Part shown: in pieces, positions 2,929 to 10,689 of the stretch
Numbering within the stretch: position 1 is the first letter of the stretch
Layout: every line of letters starts with the position of its first letter
From: Candidatus Eiseniibacteriota bacterium
GTDB lineage: Bacteria > Eisenbacteria > RBG-16-71-46 > JABDJR01 > JAWXBZ01
Length of the DNA: 23,926 nt
Reading direction: 5' to 3'
NCBI GenBank assembly: GCA_034440375.1
Contig: JAWXBZ010000025.1
Coordinates: forward strand, 1-23,926
The notes under the pieces: model-generated
What the model saw: only the letters and a program-made list of their open reading frames with translations
Databases searched by the model: none
What the model was told of the DNA's origin: nothing
Program-made: the position numbers and the translations under genes

Positions 2929-3861
2929 TCAGAGGGAAACAGGCTCGGGGTCGTAACGTATGCTGCCGCAGCCTGTCGGGTCGTAACCGGGAATGCGGGC
3001 CAGCGACCGCTGAAAAGCGGCGGACTGCGTGAGATCGCAGAGGCGGACGATCAGCGGCCCACCGAGATGGTGTGCCCGCACCAGGAGGCCGTAGGACTCG
3101 GTGGCCGAGGCAACGAATCCAAGCCCCAGCCGCGACGCCCAGGCGCGTGTGGTGAAGCCGGCATCGGCGTCTCCCCGAACGATGGCTTCGACGACCAGCT
3201 GGTGCGAATCATGGCACGGAGCGCCGGCCAGGAACGACGCCGCGTCGAGCCCCGTGGCACTCAGCCACTCGAGCAGATGAATGTGGATGCCGGCGGTGGA
3301 AGGGCGCGCCGCAAATCGATTCGGTGACAGCTGCAGCAGTCGGGTCCGATCGAAACCATCACGATAGGCCAGTCCGATTTCGCGCTCCACCAGGTGGAGA
3401 CGCACCAGCCGCCCGGCTGACAGACGCGTCGGCGGCTCGGAACCGTGACAGCCGGCCGCGGCCACACGTCCCTGTTCCAGCCATTCGATTGCCGTGGCGC
3501 GATCGGCGCGCACGAATCCGACCATTTCCCGTGCGGAGGCGTTGAGCGCGGCGAGGAGGATTTCGATCACCAGGTCACCGTTGGCGGCCAGCAGTGGTGG
3601 TGGATCGGTTGGTGCGCCGGGTCGGGCCTCCCACGGTTCGAGGTTCCGCGGGAGTTGCAGGGCGGCGGGTTGGGCCGGGGGACCTGATGGCGTCGAGCGC
3701 CCGTCCATCCACGCAATGACATCGTCCGAAACGAATCGCCACCCACGGCCCAGCCGGCGAGCCGGCAGCCCCTGGCGCAGCAGGCGGTAGACCTGCTTCG
3801 GATGGACCTTCAGGAGCCCGGCTACCTCCACCGTTGTCAGGAGAGCGGATGACGTAGGCAC
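2929..3861 (-). CDS. Excisionase/MerR-like HTH (HTH_17) + periplasmic-binding-protein-like domain regulator, probably molybdate/tungstate responsive (TaoR/YvgK-like architecture)
   Basis: N-terminal 'LLTTVEVAGLLKVHPKQVYRLLRQGLPARRLGRGWRF' is an HTH_17 pattern. The C-terminal PBP-like domain has 'LVEREIGL...RPSTAG...SHQLVVEAIVRGDADAG...ESYGLLV...IPGYD'. It is divergent from modA. The GTG start at 3861 is my choice; the ORF track extends it to 3885. Confidence 0.85.
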   Translation of the reverse strand: MPTSSALLTTVEVAGLLKVHPKQVYRLLRQGLPARRLGRGWRFVSDDVIAWMDGRSTPSGPPAQPAALQLPRNLEPWEARPGAPTDPPPLLAANGDLVIEILLAALNASAREMVGFVRADRATAIEWLEQGRVAAAGCHGSEPPTRLSAGRLVRLHLVEREIGLAYRDGFDRTRLLQLSPNRFAARPSTAGIHIHLLEWLSATGLDAASFLAGAPCHDSHQLVVEAIVRGDADAGFTTRAWASRLGLGFVASATESYGLLVRAHHLGGPLIVRLCDLTQSAAFQRSLARIPGYDPTGCGSIRYDPEPVSL

Positions 3862-3915
3862 CCATGTAGGGTAACATAGGATCACTTTAAGTAACTTTAG
3901 GGAGGTTCAAGTAAC
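3861..3915. promoter_or_regulatory. AT-rich divergent promoter region with a 10-bp-periodic direct-repeat array (candidate operator) and the modA RBS
   Basis: Successive 10-mers: gtaacatagg (3871), atcactttaa (3881), gtaactttag (3891), ggaggttcaa (3901), gtaacatgaa (3911). GTAAC recurs every 20 bp, and GGAGG lies at 3901-3905. Confidence 0.6.
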
Positions 3916-4725
3916 ATGAAACCAGTGATCGCGCTCTTGTTGATCACGCTCATGGCCTTCGGATGTCAGCGGCCCGACAAGTCACCGGAGCGCCCTCTTC
4001 TGGTGATGGGCGCCGCGAGCCTGACGGAAGTTCTGCCGAAAGTGGGCGCGGCCTGGGCCGAACAGGGGCATCCCCTGCCAGGCTTCACCTTCGACGCCTC
4101 ATCGCGACTGGCCCGGCAGATCGAGGCTGGCGCACCGGCGGATCTCTTCGTGGCGGCGGATACCGCCTGGATGAACGATCTGGCCCGGAAGGGGTTGGTC
4201 GCAGAGCCGACGCGGGTCGATCTCCTTGGCAATCGACTGGTTGTGGTCGTCCCGGAAAGCAGCCGTCGATCGATCACCAACCTTGCCGACATTGCTCACC
4301 CCGCCTACCGACGACTTGCCCTCGCCGGAGAGGCCGTTCCAGCGGGTCGCTATGCGCGGTCGGCGCTTGAATCGGCGGGCGTGCTCAATACCGTCCGGGA
4401 CCGGATCATCAATGGCGATAACGTCCGTGTCGCGTTGGCCTGGGTGGCCGGCGGTGATGCCGACGCGGCCATCGTCTATGCCACCGATGCGCGCATCGAG
4501 CCCAGGATACGTGTCGCCCTGGAGATCCCAGCCGGATTGAGCCCCGAGATCATCTATCCCGCAGGCGTCATCGCTCGATCCACGGCCCGGAAGGAGGCGG
4601 AGGACTTTCTCCGGTTTTGTCGCGGCAACGAGGCCCGGACACTTTTCGAGGCCGCGGGCTTTCGTCATGCCGCATCCTTCCGCGATGCCGAGCACTTCCC
4701 CCACCGGGGAGCCACCGGGTCATGA
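3916..4725 (+). CDS. modA: Molybdate ABC transporter substrate-binding protein, predicted lipoprotein
   Basis: ModA motifs 'GAASL', 'ASSRLARQIEAGAPADLF', 'LLGNRLV', 'VPAGRYA', 'NVRVAL', 'AIVYATDA', 'IIYPAG'. Lipobox-like 'MAFG|C' and a GGAGG RBS. Confidence 0.93.
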   Translation: MKPVIALLLITLMAFGCQRPDKSPERPLLVMGAASLTEVLPKVGAAWAEQGHPLPGFTFDASSRLARQIEAGAPADLFVAADTAWMNDLARKGLVAEPTRVDLLGNRLVVVVPESSRRSITNLADIAHPAYRRLALAGEAVPAGRYARSALESAGVLNTVRDRIINGDNVRVALAWVAGGDADAAIVYATDARIEPRIRVALEIPAGLSPEIIYPAGVIARSTARKEAEDFLRFCRGNEARTLFEAAGFRHAASFRDAEHFPHRGATGS

Positions 4726-6437
4726 CGACGCTCGATCCCGGTCGCGCCATCCTGCTCTCCCTGCAGGTTGGCCTGGCCTGCATGCTGCTCGGCCTGCCGT
4801 TTGCCATTGCGTTCGGCTGGCTCCTGGCCCGACGACGCCTGCCGATGCGTTCGCTGATCAGCACCCTGTTGATGATCCCACTCGTGCTGCCGCCGGTCGT
4901 AACTGGCCTGCTCCTCTTGCGCGGTTTCGGGCGCGGATCATGGATGGGCCCGGCTCTGGAGAGCCTTGGTCTGTCGCTCACCTTCAACCTGGCGGCCGCC
5001 ATCCTGGCCGCGCTGGTTGTCGGTTTGCCGCTCTACATTCTCGTGGCCCGGGGTGCCTTCGAGGCCGTCGATCCCCGCTATGAAGAAGTTTCCCTGACGC
5101 TCGGCCATTCGCCCTTCCGAACCTTTCGCCGTGTCACGCTGCCGCTGGCGCTCCCCGGCCTCGCGGCCGGCGCCGTCCTCGTTTTCGCGCGTGCCCTGGG
5201 TGAGTTTGGGGCCACGGCTGTGGTGGCCGGAAACATCGAGGGGAAGACGCGGACCATCTCGCTGGCCGTGTACAGCCTCCTCGAGATGCCCGGCGGTGAC
5301 GCGATGGTAGGCCGCCTGGTCATGGCCAGTGTCGTTCTGTCGCTGGCCGGCCTCCTTGCCTACGAGTTCCTTCTCCGCTGGCAGCGCCGGCGGTTGGAAC
5401 TCCCGTTGCTCTTCCTCGTCCTGGGACTTTCGGTACTCCTGCCCGGCGCCAGCCTGGCCCGGCGGATCGATATCGTCGGCGTTGGGGAACTCGCCGGTGA
5501 AAATGCGCGCGTGCTCGACATGTTCGGACGCCTGAAATTGTCATCCATGGAGATCATCGCCGGCTACGCCAAGACGCCGTTGTTCATCAGCGGGCGCAAC
5601 GAGGGTGAGGATTTGACACCGATCCCCGAGCGTTCCCAGGTGGCCAATGCGCTCTGGCCCAATCGGGACCTGGGTGTCGAGCTGCGCTGGGCGCCGAAGG
5701 AATCACCAGTCGAGGGGACGCTCTGGTTCGGCAACGGCACGTCGAATTATCGGGCCAACGACAACTCGTTGCTGGCCGCCGCCGCGCGCGCCGACCTGCT
5801 CTATGGTCGCGCGAAGCCCGGCCGTGGGAAGGAGGCCATGGGCCTGCGCAGCGGCCTCTGTGCCTACCTGGCCAACGTGGCGCCACGGTCGGGTCTTTCC
5901 GGGCGCACGATTTCCGGATCGCCCTGGTATGCGGCGCCGCGCATCAACGGACAACGCCTGCTCCTCGAAACCCATCACGCGATTTACCTGAATTCGGTCT
6001 ACGTGCTGGCCGAGGCCGGCTGGGCGCGGGAGGAACGGGAGGCGATCCCGGCATCGGCGTTGGCGCCGGCGGTTCCGTCCGGCGAGTCGATCGACTCGTG
6101 GGGATACGGGATCACCGTCGCCTGGACGTTGCGCGGCGAACCACGCGGGCCGGCGCGCCCCCCGAAGGGGCCGGACACGCTCCTCCCGTGGAACTGGAGC
6201 GGCGGCGCGGTCGAACTGGCCGTGCGCTACGACGACCTGGCGCTCGGGCATGGCGCGGCTGATGTCGCCGGGGGAGGCGCACGGGGCGGCGCCATCGCGG
6301 CCACCTGGTGGCTGATCGACGAGTGGGCCCTCTCGCTGGCCGGCTACCATCTCGAATTCCGCGAACCTGTCGTCACAAGGTCAAACGATGAGGCATCGGA
6401 TGTCCTGCTGGCCCGAACGACGTATCGCTGGAAGTAG
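4722..6437 (+). CDS. modB: ModB permease (about 4722-5402) fused in frame to a signal-peptide-like segment and an OprO/OprP-like porin domain (about 5460-6437); 571 aa
   Basis: ATG at 4722 overlaps the modA stop (ATGA). ModB motifs: 'PLVLPPVVTG', 'VDPRYEEVSLTLG', 'FARALGEFGAT..VAGNIEGKTRTISLAVY'. No stop follows 'RWQRRRLEL'. The porin-like part has 'AGYAKTP', 'PERS...NRDLGV', 'GNG...NDN...AAAR', 'VELAVRYD' and ends 'LLARTTYRWK'. Confidence 0.85.
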   Translation: MTTLDPGRAILLSLQVGLACMLLGLPFAIAFGWLLARRRLPMRSLISTLLMIPLVLPPVVTGLLLLRGFGRGSWMGPALESLGLSLTFNLAAAILAALVVGLPLYILVARGAFEAVDPRYEEVSLTLGHSPFRTFRRVTLPLALPGLAAGAVLVFARALGEFGATAVVAGNIEGKTRTISLAVYSLLEMPGGDAMVGRLVMASVVLSLAGLLAYEFLLRWQRRRLELPLLFLVLGLSVLLPGASLARRIDIVGVGELAGENARVLDMFGRLKLSSMEIIAGYAKTPLFISGRNEGEDLTPIPERSQVANALWPNRDLGVELRWAPKESPVEGTLWFGNGTSNYRANDNSLLAAAARADLLYGRAKPGRGKEAMGLRSGLCAYLANVAPRSGLSGRTISGSPWYAAPRINGQRLLLETHHAIYLNSVYVLAEAGWAREEREAIPASALAPAVPSGESIDSWGYGITVAWTLRGEPRGPARPPKGPDTLLPWNWSGGAVELAVRYDDLALGHGAADVAGGGARGGAIAATWWLIDEWALSLAGYHLEFREPVVTRSNDEASDVLLARTTYRWK

Positions 6438-6439
6438 GT

Positions 6440-7108
6440 GTGCAAATCGTCGCGCCGGGTCGTTCGCCCGGCAACTCCGGTATCAATCTGTCGGTCCGCC
6501 TCCATCTCGGGCGCCTGCCGCTCGCCTTCGATCTGACTTCCACCGCCCGGCGCATCGCAATCGTCGGACCCTCCGGCTCGGGAAAGTCGACGCTGCTGCG
6601 GATCCTGGCCGGCCTCGAACGACGCGCCCGGGGGCGCCTGGCGTTCGATGGCGAGGACTGGCAGGACGACGAGCGGCGCCTCCATCGCCCGCCATGGCAA
6701 CGCCGGGTCGGCTGGGTGCCGCAGGATTCGATCCTGTTCCCTCACGCCGACGTGCGCGCCAATCTTGCCTGGACCAATCCAACCGCGGAACGGCTGCAGC
6801 ATGTGGCCGGCGTTCTCGAGATCGCGGCCCTGCTCGATCGCCGCCCCCGCAATCTCTCCGGAGGCGAGCGTCAACGGGTGGCGCTGGGACGGGCCATCCT
6901 GTCAGCGCCGAAGCTCCTGCTCCTGGACGAACCATTCGCCGCCGTCGATCGGCGACTGCGCGGTCGGCTGGCCGAGGAACTGCGCCAGCTCAGTCACGAA
7001 TCGGATCTTCCGTTCGTCCTCGTGTCGCACGACGACGGCGATGTCGCGTCACTGGCCGATGAGGTGTGGCGGATCGAGTCCGGGCGCCTGGATCGAGTGG
7101 ATTCCTGA
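6440..7108 (+). CDS. modC: Molybdate ABC transporter ATP-binding protein (short form, no C-terminal TOBE domain)
   Basis: Walker A GPSGSGKS, ModC-like 'PPWQRRVGWVPQDSILFPH', signature LSGGERQRV, Walker B LLLLDEP, H-loop VSHD; 222 aa. Confidence 0.9.
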   Translation: MQIVAPGRSPGNSGINLSVRLHLGRLPLAFDLTSTARRIAIVGPSGSGKSTLLRILAGLERRARGRLAFDGEDWQDDERRLHRPPWQRRVGWVPQDSILFPHADVRANLAWTNPTAERLQHVAGVLEIAALLDRRPRNLSGGERQRVALGRAILSAPKLLLLDEPFAAVDRRLRGRLAEELRQLSHESDLPFVLVSHDDGDVASLADEVWRIESGRLDRVDS

Positions 7109-7135
7109 GGGACGCCGGACGGCCAGGGACGCCGG
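7108..7135. repeat. 11-bp direct repeat in the modC / deaminase convergent gap
   Basis: agggacgccgg at 7108-7118 and 7125-7135. Confidence 0.7.
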
Positions 7136-7137
7136 CC

Positions 7138-7602
7138 CTACTCCCCCATCTCCACCTGCACCAGCTCCACACGGCTCGGCTCGAGCAGCCACGCCATCCG
7201 ATCGAGCTTGTACGGCTTTTCGAAACAGATGCGCTGGATTCCGGTGTTCAGGAGCACCTTGAGGCAGTGCATGCAGGGGCTGTGCGTGATGTAGATGTCC
7301 CCGCCGTCGATCGACACCCCATTCTTGGCTGCCTGGGCGATGGCGTTTATCTCGGCGTGGATCGTGCGGATGCAATTCTCTTCATCCACGCCGTCCGAAT
7401 TTCGACTGGTGACCACCAGGCACCCGATGTCGGTGCAATGGGGGTGTCCGGACGGCGACCCGTTGTAGCCGGTCGTCAGGATCATCCGATGGCGCACGAT
7501 GACCGCTCCAACCCTGGCCCGGGTGCAGGTGGACCGCTCCGCCACCACCCGGCAGATCTTGAGAAAATAGCGGTCCCATTCAAGGCGTTTTGTCTGCTTC
7601 AC
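7138..7602 (-). CDS. dCMP deaminase (ComEB/DCTD-like Zn-dependent deaminase)
   Basis: 'WDRYFL...VAERSTC.RARVGAVIV...TGYNG.PSG..HC', with Zn motifs HAE (TIHAEINAI) and PCxxC (SPCMHC). The likely GTG start at 7602 lies 1 nt after the tldE stop. Confidence 0.9.
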   Translation of the reverse strand: MKQTKRLEWDRYFLKICRVVAERSTCTRARVGAVIVRHRMILTTGYNGSPSGHPHCTDIGCLVVTSRNSDGVDEENCIRTIHAEINAIAQAAKNGVSIDGGDIYITHSPCMHCLKVLLNTGIQRICFEKPYKLDRMAWLLEPSRVELVQVEMGE

Positions 7603-7603
7603 A

Positions 7604-8977
7604 TCACCCCGCCTGCGTTCCCTCACCGGAAATCGTCATCTCGTCGATGAGGAGATGCGGTGAATTGGTACCTCCCTGGATATTCAGGTCGTTGCCGACC
7701 TTCACGATGCCGGCAAGCATCTGAAGGGTATTTCCGGCCACGGTGATGCCGTCGACGGCGTGGACGACCTGGCCGTTCTCGATCCACAGGCCGGCGGCCT
7801 GGTACGAATAGTCGCCGGTGGTCGGGGTGTAACCGAAGGCGCCCTGATCGCGCATGTAGAAGAGCGCGGGGTAGGCCTTCAGCATCTCCTCGATCGTTGA
7901 CGTGCCGTTCAGGATGTGGAGATTGCGGGTGCCGATGCCGGGCGTCGTGTCGTAGCCCCGCTGCGCGTTGCCGGTCGACCGCGTGCCGGCCTTCCGCGCG
8001 ATGTAGGCGTCGTACAGAAAGGTCTTGACGACCCCGGCGTCGAGAAGCACGTTGCGCTGCGTCGGCAGACCGTCGCCGTCGAACGGGGCGGTGGCCGGGC
8101 CGCGCTTCATGACGCCGTCATCGACGAGCGAGACGAGGTCCGATCCGATCTTCTGCCCCATTTTCTCGGTGAGATACGAGGCCTTCTTGAAGATCTGCTC
8201 ACCGTTGAAGGCACCCGAGAAGGCGCCGAGCCAGGCGGCGGCGATATCCGAGTGCATGAGAATCGGCACCTTGCGCGTGGAGATCGGGACCGGCCCGAGC
8301 ATGACCACCGCCGCCCTGGCGGCCTCGGTGCCAACCTTTTCCGGCGATTCCAGCTCCTTGAGAAATCGACGCGACGTACCGTAGCCGCCCGAACGCTGCT
8401 TGCCACCGGAGTCATCGCAGAGAGCCAGGGTAAAGAGGTTTGCCGATGTGGCGCGATATTGATCCAGGCGACCCGCGGAATTGGCCAGGGTGATGGTGGC
8501 CAGCGTGTCGGAAAATGTCGTGCCGTCGACCTGCGTCACCCGCTTGTCGTGATCACGCGCGGCGGCTTCGGCGTCCCGGGCCATTTTGAGTTTCCTGTCG
8601 GTGGCGAGGCCGGCCAGTTCGGAATCGAAAAGATCGAGTGAATCGGCCGCATTCGACGCACCGGAAGCTTCCGGGATGCCGGCGTGCGGATCCATCTCGC
8701 CAATCGTAGCCAGGGCCACGGCGCGATCGACCAGCATCGCGATGCTGTCCGGACGCAGGTCCGAACTGGATACGAAACCGGTGCGGCCGCCCACGAAGGC
8801 GCGCAGGCCAAGCCCCCGTCGGGTGGCCTGCTTGATCAGGTCGGTCTTGCCGTCCCGCACACGGCCGGTGAAAACGCGGCTGTATTCGACCAGGACGTCG
8901 GCCTGATCGGCGCCGGCTTTTCGGGCCATCTCGACGGTCTCGTGCGCGAGATCGCGAAGTTCCTTGTCGCTGATCAT
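7604..8977 (-). CDS. pmbA: TldE/PmbA family protein (non-catalytic partner of TldD)
   Basis: 'GADQADV', 'GLGLRAFVG.RTG', 'PFDGDGLPT', 'TGDYSYQAAGLWIENG', 'TVAGN', 'SPHLLIDEMTISG'; no HExxxH motif. ATG at 8977 overlaps the tldD TGA and has a GGAGG RBS. Confidence 0.9.
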   Translation of the reverse strand: MISDKELRDLAHETVEMARKAGADQADVLVEYSRVFTGRVRDGKTDLIKQATRRGLGLRAFVGGRTGFVSSSDLRPDSIAMLVDRAVALATIGEMDPHAGIPEASGASNAADSLDLFDSELAGLATDRKLKMARDAEAAARDHDKRVTQVDGTTFSDTLATITLANSAGRLDQYRATSANLFTLALCDDSGGKQRSGGYGTSRRFLKELESPEKVGTEAARAAVVMLGPVPISTRKVPILMHSDIAAAWLGAFSGAFNGEQIFKKASYLTEKMGQKIGSDLVSLVDDGVMKRGPATAPFDGDGLPTQRNVLLDAGVVKTFLYDAYIARKAGTRSTGNAQRGYDTTPGIGTRNLHILNGTSTIEEMLKAYPALFYMRDQGAFGYTPTTGDYSYQAAGLWIENGQVVHAVDGITVAGNTLQMLAGIVKVGNDLNIQGGTNSPHLLIDEMTISGEGTQAG

Positions 8978-10539
8978 GCCACACCTCCCACCGTGATCTC
9001 GGAGAACTTGAGGGTTGGCTGGCCGACGCCGACCGGCTTCCATTGCCCCTCCTTGCCGCAGTTCCCGGACACCCGGTCAATTTGCAGGTCGTTTCCGACC
9101 ATGACGATCTTCATCATCGCGTCGGTGGCGTTGCCGGTGAGGGTGGTGTTCGTGACGGCGCCCACGATCTCACCCTTCTCGAGCTGATATCCCTCGGTGA
9201 CGAAGAATGAAAAGTTGCCGCTGGCCGGATCGACCGAGCCGCCGCCCAGGTCCTTGCAATAGAGCCCGTTGGCGACCGACTTGATGATCTCCTCGGGTGT
9301 CGAGCTGCCGCCGGCGATGTACGTGTTGGTCATGCGCGGAATCGGGTAGTCACGGTAGGAGTTCCGGCGCCCGTTGCCACTCGAGTTGTTGCCGGTGAGC
9401 CGGGCGTTTAGAAAGTCCCAGAGGTACCCCCTCAAAATTCCCTTGTCGACCACGTGCGATTTCTGTGAGGAAGTGCCCTCATCGTCCACCTTGAACGATC
9501 CGCGGCCATTGGGCACGGTCGAGTCGTCGTAGATATCGACGATGGTGGCGGCCACCTGCTGGCCGAGCTGAGTGGCCCGAACCGAAGTCTTCTGGCGAAT
9601 GCCGTCCCCCTCAAGGCTGTGACCGAAACACTCGTGGGCCAGCACGCCCCCCCAGCCATTGCCGATGACGACTTCATACTTGCCGGCCCTGGCCGGTTTG
9701 GCGGCCAACTTGCCGACGGCGGCCGTCGCCGCGCGGACGCCGATCTGTTCCGGCGGGTTGGTCTCGAAAAAATTGGCCTCGACCTGGCCGCCGAGACGTC
9801 CCGTGCCCGACTGGCGGTTCGCACCGTCGAGCGCCTGCGCCTGGCAGGTCAGGCGGGAGAGATACTGTTCGTCCTCGGCCCAGGTGCCGAGGCTGTTGGC
9901 CACCAGGAATCGCTTGGCCTGATCCCCCCAGACGACTGTGACCTGCGAGATCTTTGCGTCGTGGCCCCGGGCCGCCCCATCAACCCGCCGGCAGAGCTCC
10001 AGCTTGGCCTGCTCGGCCAGGTTGACCGGAAGCGGTGACATCAGTGTAAACGGGGCCTTCGCCTTCGACACCTGGAACGGTTTCGGGGAACCACCCGCCC
10101 CCTTTTTGGCGATGGCGCCGGCCACGCGCGCCGCTTCGCGCAACTCGGTCATATCGTAACTGTCGGCGTAGGCATAGCCGACCTGTTCCCCGTCAATCAC
10201 GCGGATGCCGACGCCCGAAAGGATGTTGTAGTCGATCGACTTGACCTTCTTCTCGTCCAGCCGGATGCCGGTATTGATGGTGTACTCGGCGTATACCTCG
10301 GCGAACTCACCGCCGGCCGAAAGGGCCGCTTTCAGGATGTCGGCCACCTGGTCCCGGCTGAGGAATTTCGTCAGCTCCGGCAACTGGTTGCCGCCGGCCG
10401 CGCCGGATTCGCGCGCCGTCAGCGCATCCCAGGTGAGCCCGGCCGCCGCCGCGCCAACACCGGCCATGAGACTACGGCCAAGAAATTCGCGCCGCGAAAG
10501 GGGCCCGGAGGAAATGTCGAAGAGTGGGTCGGACAGCAT
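8974..10539 (-). CDS. tldD: TldD metalloprotease with an N-terminal twin-arginine signal
   Basis: Metal motif HECFGH, 'VDDEG', 'GNGRR.SY...PIPRMTNTYI', 'CGKEGQ..PVGVGQPT'. ATG at 10539 has a GGAGG RBS. N-terminus 'LSRREFLGRSLMAGVGAAAAG'. Confidence 0.93.
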   Translation of the reverse strand: MLSDPLFDISSGPLSRREFLGRSLMAGVGAAAAGLTWDALTARESGAAGGNQLPELTKFLSRDQVADILKAALSAGGEFAEVYAEYTINTGIRLDEKKVKSIDYNILSGVGIRVIDGEQVGYAYADSYDMTELREAARVAGAIAKKGAGGSPKPFQVSKAKAPFTLMSPLPVNLAEQAKLELCRRVDGAARGHDAKISQVTVVWGDQAKRFLVANSLGTWAEDEQYLSRLTCQAQALDGANRQSGTGRLGGQVEANFFETNPPEQIGVRAATAAVGKLAAKPARAGKYEVVIGNGWGGVLAHECFGHSLEGDGIRQKTSVRATQLGQQVAATIVDIYDDSTVPNGRGSFKVDDEGTSSQKSHVVDKGILRGYLWDFLNARLTGNNSSGNGRRNSYRDYPIPRMTNTYIAGGSSTPEEIIKSVANGLYCKDLGGGSVDPASGNFSFFVTEGYQLEKGEIVGAVTNTTLTGNATDAMMKIVMVGNDLQIDRVSGNCGKEGQWKPVGVGQPTLKFSEITVGGVA

Positions 10540-10689
10540 GACGCCTCCCAAGAAGCAGGTTGGATACCGGGCGTGACAGTTATTGCGGGGACCGAACGGT
10601 AGCCCGGGAAGAATAGCCGCCCCACCGCCCCCGGGCAAGGCAGTCGCCGTGCCCGTAGTGATAAAGTGCCCTTCGGATCCGCATGATTC

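Follow-up and report, generated by a model that had tools for sequence, protein, structure and literature searches.

Is an open reading frame (ORF) that joins a molybdate permease to an outer-membrane porin a genuine gene, and if so, what becomes of its single product? The question is raised by a 23,926-nucleotide stretch from Candidatus Eiseniibacteriota bacterium (assembly GCA_034440375.1), hereafter the window, which is the entire contig JAWXBZ010000025.1 (C25). The contig belongs to an uncultured mat bacterium whose genome was assembled from metagenome data, in 264 contigs and to 93.7% completeness. In its molybdate-uptake operon, between modA and modC, lies an ORF of 571 codons (4722..6437, + strand) that comprises the permease ModB, a signal-peptide-like segment and a predicted β-barrel with the fold of the porin OprP. 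A first-pass annotation, made from the letters alone, had proposed a cleavable polyprotein destined for the inner and outer membranes, and the reading of the ORF on which it was built is reproduced. The ATG at 4722 overlaps the modA stop codon (ATGA), and no stop occurs past the permease tail RWQRRRLEL or anywhere before the TAG at 6435–6437; the codon of P228 begins at 5403 and opens the segment PLLFLVLGLSVLLPGASLA (5403–5459), and the protein terminates in LLARTTYRWK. The G+C content at third codon positions (GC3) stays at 0.74–0.90 in a single frame over the entire ORF. This frame does not shift at the junction and is thus the coding frame of the two halves alike.

The fusion is genuine and species-specific. 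The 1716-nucleotide ORF recurs letter for letter in two separately assembled metagenome contigs (L038 and L039), and a 970-nucleotide contig of run X5 covers 5264–6233 with zero differences. Contigs of X6 and X7, two sediment runs from a separate study that represent a diverged strain, begin at 5358 within modB and pass through the junction with one listed difference, a synonymous A>T at 5435. Neither an indel nor a stop was reported for 5380–5480, the interval that the first-pass annotation had marked for inspection. The contigs of run X4 leave 5328–5407 unbridged, which is a coverage gap and not evidence. The source is a metagenome-assembled bin with a local depth of about 3–6×, which speaks for a junction created by faulty assembly or sequencing, an alternative named at the outset. 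Against it stand the continuous coding periodicity, the two identical assemblies, the X5 contig and the X6 and X7 contigs of another study, which leave such an artefact a negligible probability; because the identical ORF is found in L038 and L039 and the junction is bridged in three further runs, assembly error is practically excluded.

The first 227 residues (4722..5402, +) form an ordinary ModB that is complete up to its Arg-rich tail, in agreement with the initial assignment. They score 207.2 bits against the equivalog model TIGR02141 (cut-off 182.6, residues 12–217), the ModB match spans residues 8–225, and the expected family BPD_transp_1 is matched at 8.8e-18; the model NF006939 gives 223.6, under its cut-off of 262. 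Solved ModB chains are matched at 1.5e-21 (2onk_C) and 3.7e-20 (3d31_C). Permeases of the ModB type have five or six membrane helices and an EAA-type coupling loop on the cytoplasmic side, and the loop present here, EAVDPRYEEVSLTLGHSPFRTFRRVTLP, aligns with that of 2onk_C. Five hydropathy peaks lie ahead of residue 220, and this part is 65% identical to the stand-alone 231-residue ModB of the sister genus (G001), which ends in RLEVLRDR before its stop. The operon position is also as expected, with ModB flanked by modA (TIGR01256, 140.5 bits, ATGA overlap) and by modC.

Behind this complete five-helix ModB, a sixth hydrophobic segment (5403..5459, +) starts at residue 228, and thus not N-terminally as in ordinary Sec precursors. 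Its Kyte-Doolittle hydropathy peaks at 2.19 over 19 residues (227–245). Substrates of signal peptidase I combine a positive n-region, a hydrophobic core of 10–15 residues, a helix breaker and small residues at positions −3 and −1. As far as the sequence can tell, the junction has all these features: RRR-LE, the 12-residue core LLFLVLGLSVLL, a P-G helix breaker and A-S-L-A before RR, with S and A at −3 and −1 of the putative cleavage site, in accordance with the rule. The corresponding position of full-length members of the porin family is occupied by an ordinary N-terminal signal peptide. The segment has a predicted local distance difference test (pLDDT) score <50 in the AlphaFold2 model and falls outside the modelled barrel. 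The host genome encodes a signal peptidase I (178.9 bits), and its Omp85/BamA proteins give six matches over the cut-off. MAFFT aligned the segment with family strand 2, as if it were a vestige of that strand; this was rejected, the segment being uniformly hydrophobic, provided with P-G-A-S-L-A and unstructured in the model; in the X6/X7 strain, moreover, it precedes 39 more residues ahead of strand 3.

The remaining ~325 residues (5460..6434, +) are predicted to adopt the OprP/OprO fold, an assignment that rests mainly on structural grounds. AlphaFold2, run on residues 222–571 with a 42-row alignment, returned a β-barrel with a pLDDT of 89.7 and a predicted template modelling score of 0.88, as the first reading of the locus had anticipated. 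Fourteen strands are predicted, equivalent to family strands 3–16. Compared with solved structures, the predicted model is closest to OprP (2o4v), the best Foldseek match, with an E-value of 1e-9 and a template modelling score of 0.74, followed by OprO (4rjw); VIA-align gave Z-scores of 30.8 and 30.7 for OprP and OprO, with a root-mean-square deviation of 2.7 Å and 314 aligned residues, the next porins being at Z ~21. The expectation of a Porin_O_P domain (PF07396) in residues 247–571 is borne out in part: the C-terminal part alone scores 22.2 bits, above the gathering threshold of 20.9, but it matches only the last third of the profile (positions 259–370), and the whole protein stays below at 20.0 bits. 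An NCBIfam scan of the C-terminal part gave no match. An exhaustive HMMER search against 1.84 billion representatives detected 65 relatives (90–485 residues), the best at 1.1e-68 and 43% identity, and those that are named carry the label phosphate-selective porin OprO/OprP. Solved OprP and OprO are trimeric in the outer membrane and owe their selectivity for phosphate to an arginine ladder and a lysine cluster; at the level of the family found here, many strand arginines are conserved. The host genome also contains two further stand-alone Porin_O_P genes, whose products both start with a normal signal peptide and have an aromatic end.

An OprP-type porin beside an oxyanion ATP-binding cassette (ABC) importer is a habit of this lineage, normally as separate genes. 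In the phylum, 45 of 206 genomes, the source among them, have a ModB match, and 85 of 206 have a Porin_O_P match, a tally that includes the unpublished G081, on which no other result depends. Crossing the two sets of positions placed a separate Porin_O_P gene within about 2.5 kilobases (kb) of modB in eight of the 44 other ModB-bearing genomes of the phylum (G024, G045, G092, G093, G103, G104, G111, and G125). The layout, established by tblastn, is the same in all eight loci (L057–L064): the porin is divergent from an HTH_17-TOBE regulator, modA, modB and a modC with TOBE, which makes a five-gene locus; Pfam confirmed the porin and the regulator in four of the eight and the mod genes in part. 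These porins (326–363 codons, ~290–300 residues when mature) share 45–55% mutual identity and end in ...QVRF, and hhalign relates them to the family of the fused porin with a probability of 96.6% (E 6e-10) in an alignment limited to the N-terminal half. The eight genomes, from two families and five genera, are kin and therefore do not represent eight independent events. In a ninth genome, G018 (L037, contig C143, 2998–8282), a sulfate ABC operon (sbp-cysT-cysW-cysA) that follows modB-modC at a distance of 2.5 kb has a full-length Porin_O_P gene (112 bits) as its first gene. The passage of molybdate across the outer membrane is usually ascribed to general porins; the recurrent pairing of porin and mod genes, quite apart from the fusion, points to dedicated outer-membrane molybdate channels. 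Comparative support for a ModABC-dedicated porin comes from the phylum (8/44), but not from the closest relatives of the fused porin, which are found near propeller genes and not near mod operons. Full-text literature searches, which did not extend to supplementary files, yielded neither a molybdate-dedicated OprP-type porin nor this five-gene locus. Fur-linked putative porins (PMC545781) and a porin near a two-component system (PMC2996986) have been described, in neither case with a link to mod genes.

We propose, with about an even chance of being right, that the ORF specifies one precursor, that signal peptidase I cuts it after ASLA and that the porin serves, or recently served, molybdate entry. 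A porin gene located between modB and modC would have lost the stop and the start that formerly separated it from modB, and with these gone the ribosome would make a single chain in which ModB is followed by the signal peptide that belongs to the porin and then by the barrel; a deletion fusing two neighbouring genes, already considered in the first-pass annotation, is the most likely origin. We infer the membrane topology and the cleavage from general knowledge of type I ABC importers and from the −3/−1 rule. The C-terminus of such permeases is cytoplasmic, and the extra hydrophobic segment would therefore span the membrane N-in/C-out. ModB would be inserted via SecYEG/YidC with its C-terminus in the cytoplasm, RRR-LE-LPLLFLVLGLSVLL-PGASLA would enter the membrane N-in/C-out in the fashion of a signal peptide, the 325-residue β-rich part would be exported, and signal peptidase I would cleave after ASLA. 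ModB would thereby keep 20 additional residues as a membrane tail, and the porin precursor would be released to the β-barrel assembly machinery (BAM). The porin would pass, or until recently have passed, molybdate or tungstate through the outer membrane, which fits the mod-porin habit of the phylum. The more demanding form of this proposal, a one-chain polyprotein whose halves end in different membranes and whose 14-strand barrel is a working hairpin-deletion variant of a 16-strand OprP-type porin, is advanced as a tentative possibility.

Both the distribution of the fusion and the state of its porin half weigh against this proposal. All 65 HMMER relatives are stand-alone and none is longer than 485 residues; the query's own 571-residue protein is itself unlisted there, so fused forms hidden within clusters are possible. 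The porin part, used as a query, had no match in 40 related genomes. The sister genus (G001) has modA, the 231-residue modB and then directly modC, with no porin between them. In the Atlas, porins and ModB fall into different clusters, and a cluster exists that combines ModA with ModB but none that combines ModB with a porin; a feature search there gave no usable match. The locus search returned five Myxococcota loci (L040–L044) from a three-row alignment and none from P0004 alone, and in these five genomic relatives modA, modB and modC are absent within the ~6 kb of fetched flanks. Instead, the porin stands directly behind an NHL/SGL (SMP-30-like) β-propeller gene, abutting or overlapping it, in four of four loci scanned (L040, 4256–6873; L042, 4264–6629; L043, 4545–6984; L044, 3643–5669; L041 was left out), which suggests a two-gene unit in Myxococcota.

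Further searches agree with a fusion confined to one species. The family profile gave only weak partial matches, in 17 of the 205 other genomes of the phylum, and the closest in-phylum homologue, in G085, is a stand-alone porin adjoining an unrelated gene. No in-frame porin was seen behind modB for the 44 other ModB matches of the phylum, as far as these were checked, the long frames examined being ordinary modB-modC; a 602-codon open frame around modB in G053 was discarded as a plain modA-modB-modC. In a word-based protein search with residues 228–571, the query stood alone among 8000 scored candidates, and a search for shorter forms retrieved one stand-alone family fragment, P0082, which is not the variant of the X6/X7 strain. 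The hunt for the same two-domain architecture in relatives, suggested by the first-pass annotation, thus ended without a second fused protein.

As for the porin half, full-length family members have a signal peptide, then ~40 residues that form two strands (consensus LxPxxxxExDxR ... GFxLxRxRLG), and then the strand that aligns with RRIDIVGVGE; the model of one of them, P0015, shows a signal helix and 16 strands (pLDDT 92.7). Sixteen is also the number of strands in the OprP barrel. The window copy has 14 predicted strands because the first hairpin, strands 1 and 2, is missing, and four conserved charged positions (D/R/R/R) are lost with it. Its alignment with OprO starts at residue 56, low-confidence ends being trimmed, versus residue 7 for P0015 (346 residues). 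Elsewhere it agrees with the family in 38 of the 47 conserved columns, and only two of the 42 rows agree in fewer. The aromatic-terminated last strand of the first-pass annotation did not hold up: the final residue is Lys, with W at −2 and Y at −4, and the family itself mostly terminates in Arg. The X6/X7 strain has a deletion of its own, as one contig in each run lacks a 111-nucleotide segment (6009..6119, +), or 37 codons in frame, corresponding to residues 430–466. These cover the end of strand 11 (family numbering), a loop and the start of strand 12, and include the family-conserved E431, E437, and R439.

The same strain sheds light on the missing hairpin. Positions 1–114 of the X6 and X7 contigs correspond to 5358–5471 of the window and positions 223 onward to 5463 onward, so that 108 contig letters remain unaligned and 117 extra bases (39 codons, in frame) lie between copies of the 9-nucleotide repeat CGGATCGAT. 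The single copy in the window (5463..5471, +) is the insertion point and coincides with the position of the missing first hairpin. Since their location and length match the hairpin absent from the window allele, the 117 bases probably encode it. The window allele would then have arisen, through deletion by slippage, from a fused gene with all 16 strands, and the upstream hydrophobic segment would therefore be the porin's original signal peptide.

Selection on the porin half can be judged from the part shared by both strains. Seven base differences are listed there, five of which are synonymous, and the ratio of nonsynonymous to synonymous polymorphism (pN/pS) is 0.14 (P = 0.017 under neutrality). 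The two nonsynonymous changes are H510R and H543Y, and in both the family-like residue belongs to the X6/X7 strain. The two large indels (117 and 111 nucleotides) are both multiples of three. The frame and the protein sequence look constrained, yet conserved structure has been lost from each allele.

These data are the ground on which the main competing explanation, a recent accident in decay, has to be judged. Through a small deletion, modB would have become joined to the porin gene beside it, which was probably acquired horizontally; the permease would still work, while the porin half would not be a competent barrel and would be cut off and degraded or merely tolerated, its frame being open by chance or because it aids the translation of modC. 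The restriction to one species, the large deletion in conserved structure in each known allele (strands 1–2 in one, residues 430–466 in the other), the nine changed columns of the 47 conserved and the family-like residues at 510 and 543 in the other strain all fit such decay, and since modC starts 2 nucleotides past the stop, upkeep of the frame could serve translational coupling. The pN/pS of 0.14, with five of seven changes synonymous, points the other way, as do two in-frame indels (a chance of 1 in 9 if neutral), an ORF identical across at least five mat samples and 344 codons devoid of stops and frameshifts. Relatives, in addition, select for a porin at mod loci, and barrel size varies naturally in the superfamily, the mod-linked porins of relatives having only ~290–300 residues when mature. 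On balance we regard decay as a serious but rather unlikely explanation.

Two other readings accept the fusion and dispute the way in which its product is made or processed. The segment could be a permanent sixth transmembrane helix of an uncleaved protein, the β-rich part being tethered in the periplasm, inert or in a non-porin role; a hydropathy of 2.19 over 19 residues suffices for a helix, but the core itself extends over only ~12 residues, and the P-G and the canonical small-X-small site behind it make it signal-peptide-like and not anchor-like. There is also no linker by which a tethered barrel could reach the outer membrane, and the domain is modelled as a full porin fold and not as a soluble one, all of which makes an uncleaved product improbable. 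About equally improbable is separate translation of the porin from an internal start, with read-through of modB as a by-product. The only nearby in-frame start is the TTG at 5394, 9 nucleotides ahead of the hydrophobic segment, and this organism does use GTG and TTG starts, as modC (GTG) illustrates. Initiation there is nevertheless unlikely because a Shine-Dalgarno-like sequence is absent upstream, compared with GGGAGG for modA, and because the resulting n-region (MELPLLF...) would be acidic, with no positive charge; modB would, besides, still have no stop, and every ModB chain would bear the porin. Cleavage of one precursor by signal peptidase I is the reading that we retain.

Around the fused ORF lie the other genes of the operon and its flanks. 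The molybdate-binding protein gene modA (3916..4725, +) scores 140.5 bits against TIGR01256 (cut-off 62.5) and matches SBP_bac_11 at 9.2e-51; its ribosome site, GGGAGG, lies 8–13 nucleotides upstream of the ATG, and the N-terminus of the protein (..LMAFGC) looks like a lipoprotein signal from its sequence. Head-to-head with modA is a regulator gene (2929..3885, −) with an HTH_17 DNA-binding domain (5.3e-12) and a PBP_like ligand-binding domain (1.4e-19). The mod loci of relatives have HTH_17 with TOBE instead, which means the same DNA-binding head but another presumed oxyanion sensor. In the 30-nucleotide gap between the two genes (3886–3915), a direct repeat AAGTAAC flanks the ribosome site and may be an operator. 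The ATPase gene modC (6440..7108, +) begins with a GTG 2 nucleotides downstream of the stop of the fused ORF and matches TIGR02142 (7.6e-60) and ABC_tran (1.4e-32). It is a short form of 222 residues that has no C-terminal TOBE domain, whereas the ModC of the eight porin-linked loci carries one; it matches positions 2–211 of the 353 of TIGR02142, and because the TOBE part is missing, its 203 bits fall below the model cut-off of 285. When 3700–7400 was scanned for promoters and terminators, nothing promoter-like was detected; two sites resembled terminators, a number within shuffle expectation, and neither lies at the junction. The upstream flank (110–2883) encodes DUF2339 and DUF3999 membrane proteins, and the downstream flank (7138–10638, −) a TldD/PmbA metallopeptidase pair as well as a dCMP/cytidine deaminase. 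The modA of the sister genus lies within an ORF of 450 codons (L008, G001:C23, 2175–3527, −) whose substrate-binding domain starts only at residue 226, behind an internal lipoprotein-like signal; either the protein is extended at its N-terminus or the frame contains two genes.

Both the ModB-porin fusion and the repeated occurrence, in the phylum, of OprP-family porins beside mod operons are new, being without description in the literature searched; the statement of the first-pass annotation that no such fusion was known to it agrees with the full-text searches, supplementary files not covered, in which none was found. Should the chain be cleaved into two working halves, one translation product would naturally give rise to an inner- and an outer-membrane protein, of which we know no described example. 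It would supply a co-regulated, 1:1 route for molybdate or tungstate across the whole envelope, and would offer a test object for the processing of internal signal peptides and for the minimum number of strands of an OprP-type barrel.

Compared with known ModABC systems, residues 1–227 are an ordinary, complete ModB (TIGR02141; 2onk_C, 3d31_C) between modA and modC, and the difference lies in the absent stop, the sixth hydrophobic segment and the 325-residue barrel. Fusions of ModA with ModB exist (Atlas cluster PF00528 + PF13531), while a porin fusion was not found in that resource. With OprP and OprO of Pseudomonas aeruginosa (2o4v, 4rjw; PF07396) the porin part appears to share the fold, the model scoring about 9 Z units above general porins, but the identity is 13–15% and the Pfam match of the fused copy is marginal and limited to the last third; the two P. 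aeruginosa porins have 16 strands and an N-terminal signal peptide, in contrast to 14 predicted strands and a putative internal one, and the fused gene sits in a molybdate locus and not in a phosphate-starvation one. The stand-alone OprP-like family (65 representatives, e.g., P0002–P0023, and L040–L044) is closer, with 28–43% identity over strands 3–16 and the common motifs AGYxKTPLF and ALWPGRDLG; its whole members begin with a signal peptide of their own and possess two more strands, several matches are fragments, and none is fused. The short mod-linked Porin_O_P proteins (L057–L064) likewise belong to the OprP superfamily and are genetically tied to modABC, but as separate, divergent genes of another and shorter clade. 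For the proposed logic, the nearest parallel is FbcH (a name that the literature search did not return), the cytochrome b-c1 precursor of Bradyrhizobium japonicum, which is divided at a signal peptide inside the chain: a polytopic inner-membrane protein, a signal peptide and an exported partner follow one another, and signal peptidase separates the two proteins. Both products of FbcH stay at the inner membrane in one complex, whereas here the second product, once cleaved as we suppose, would travel on to the outer membrane.

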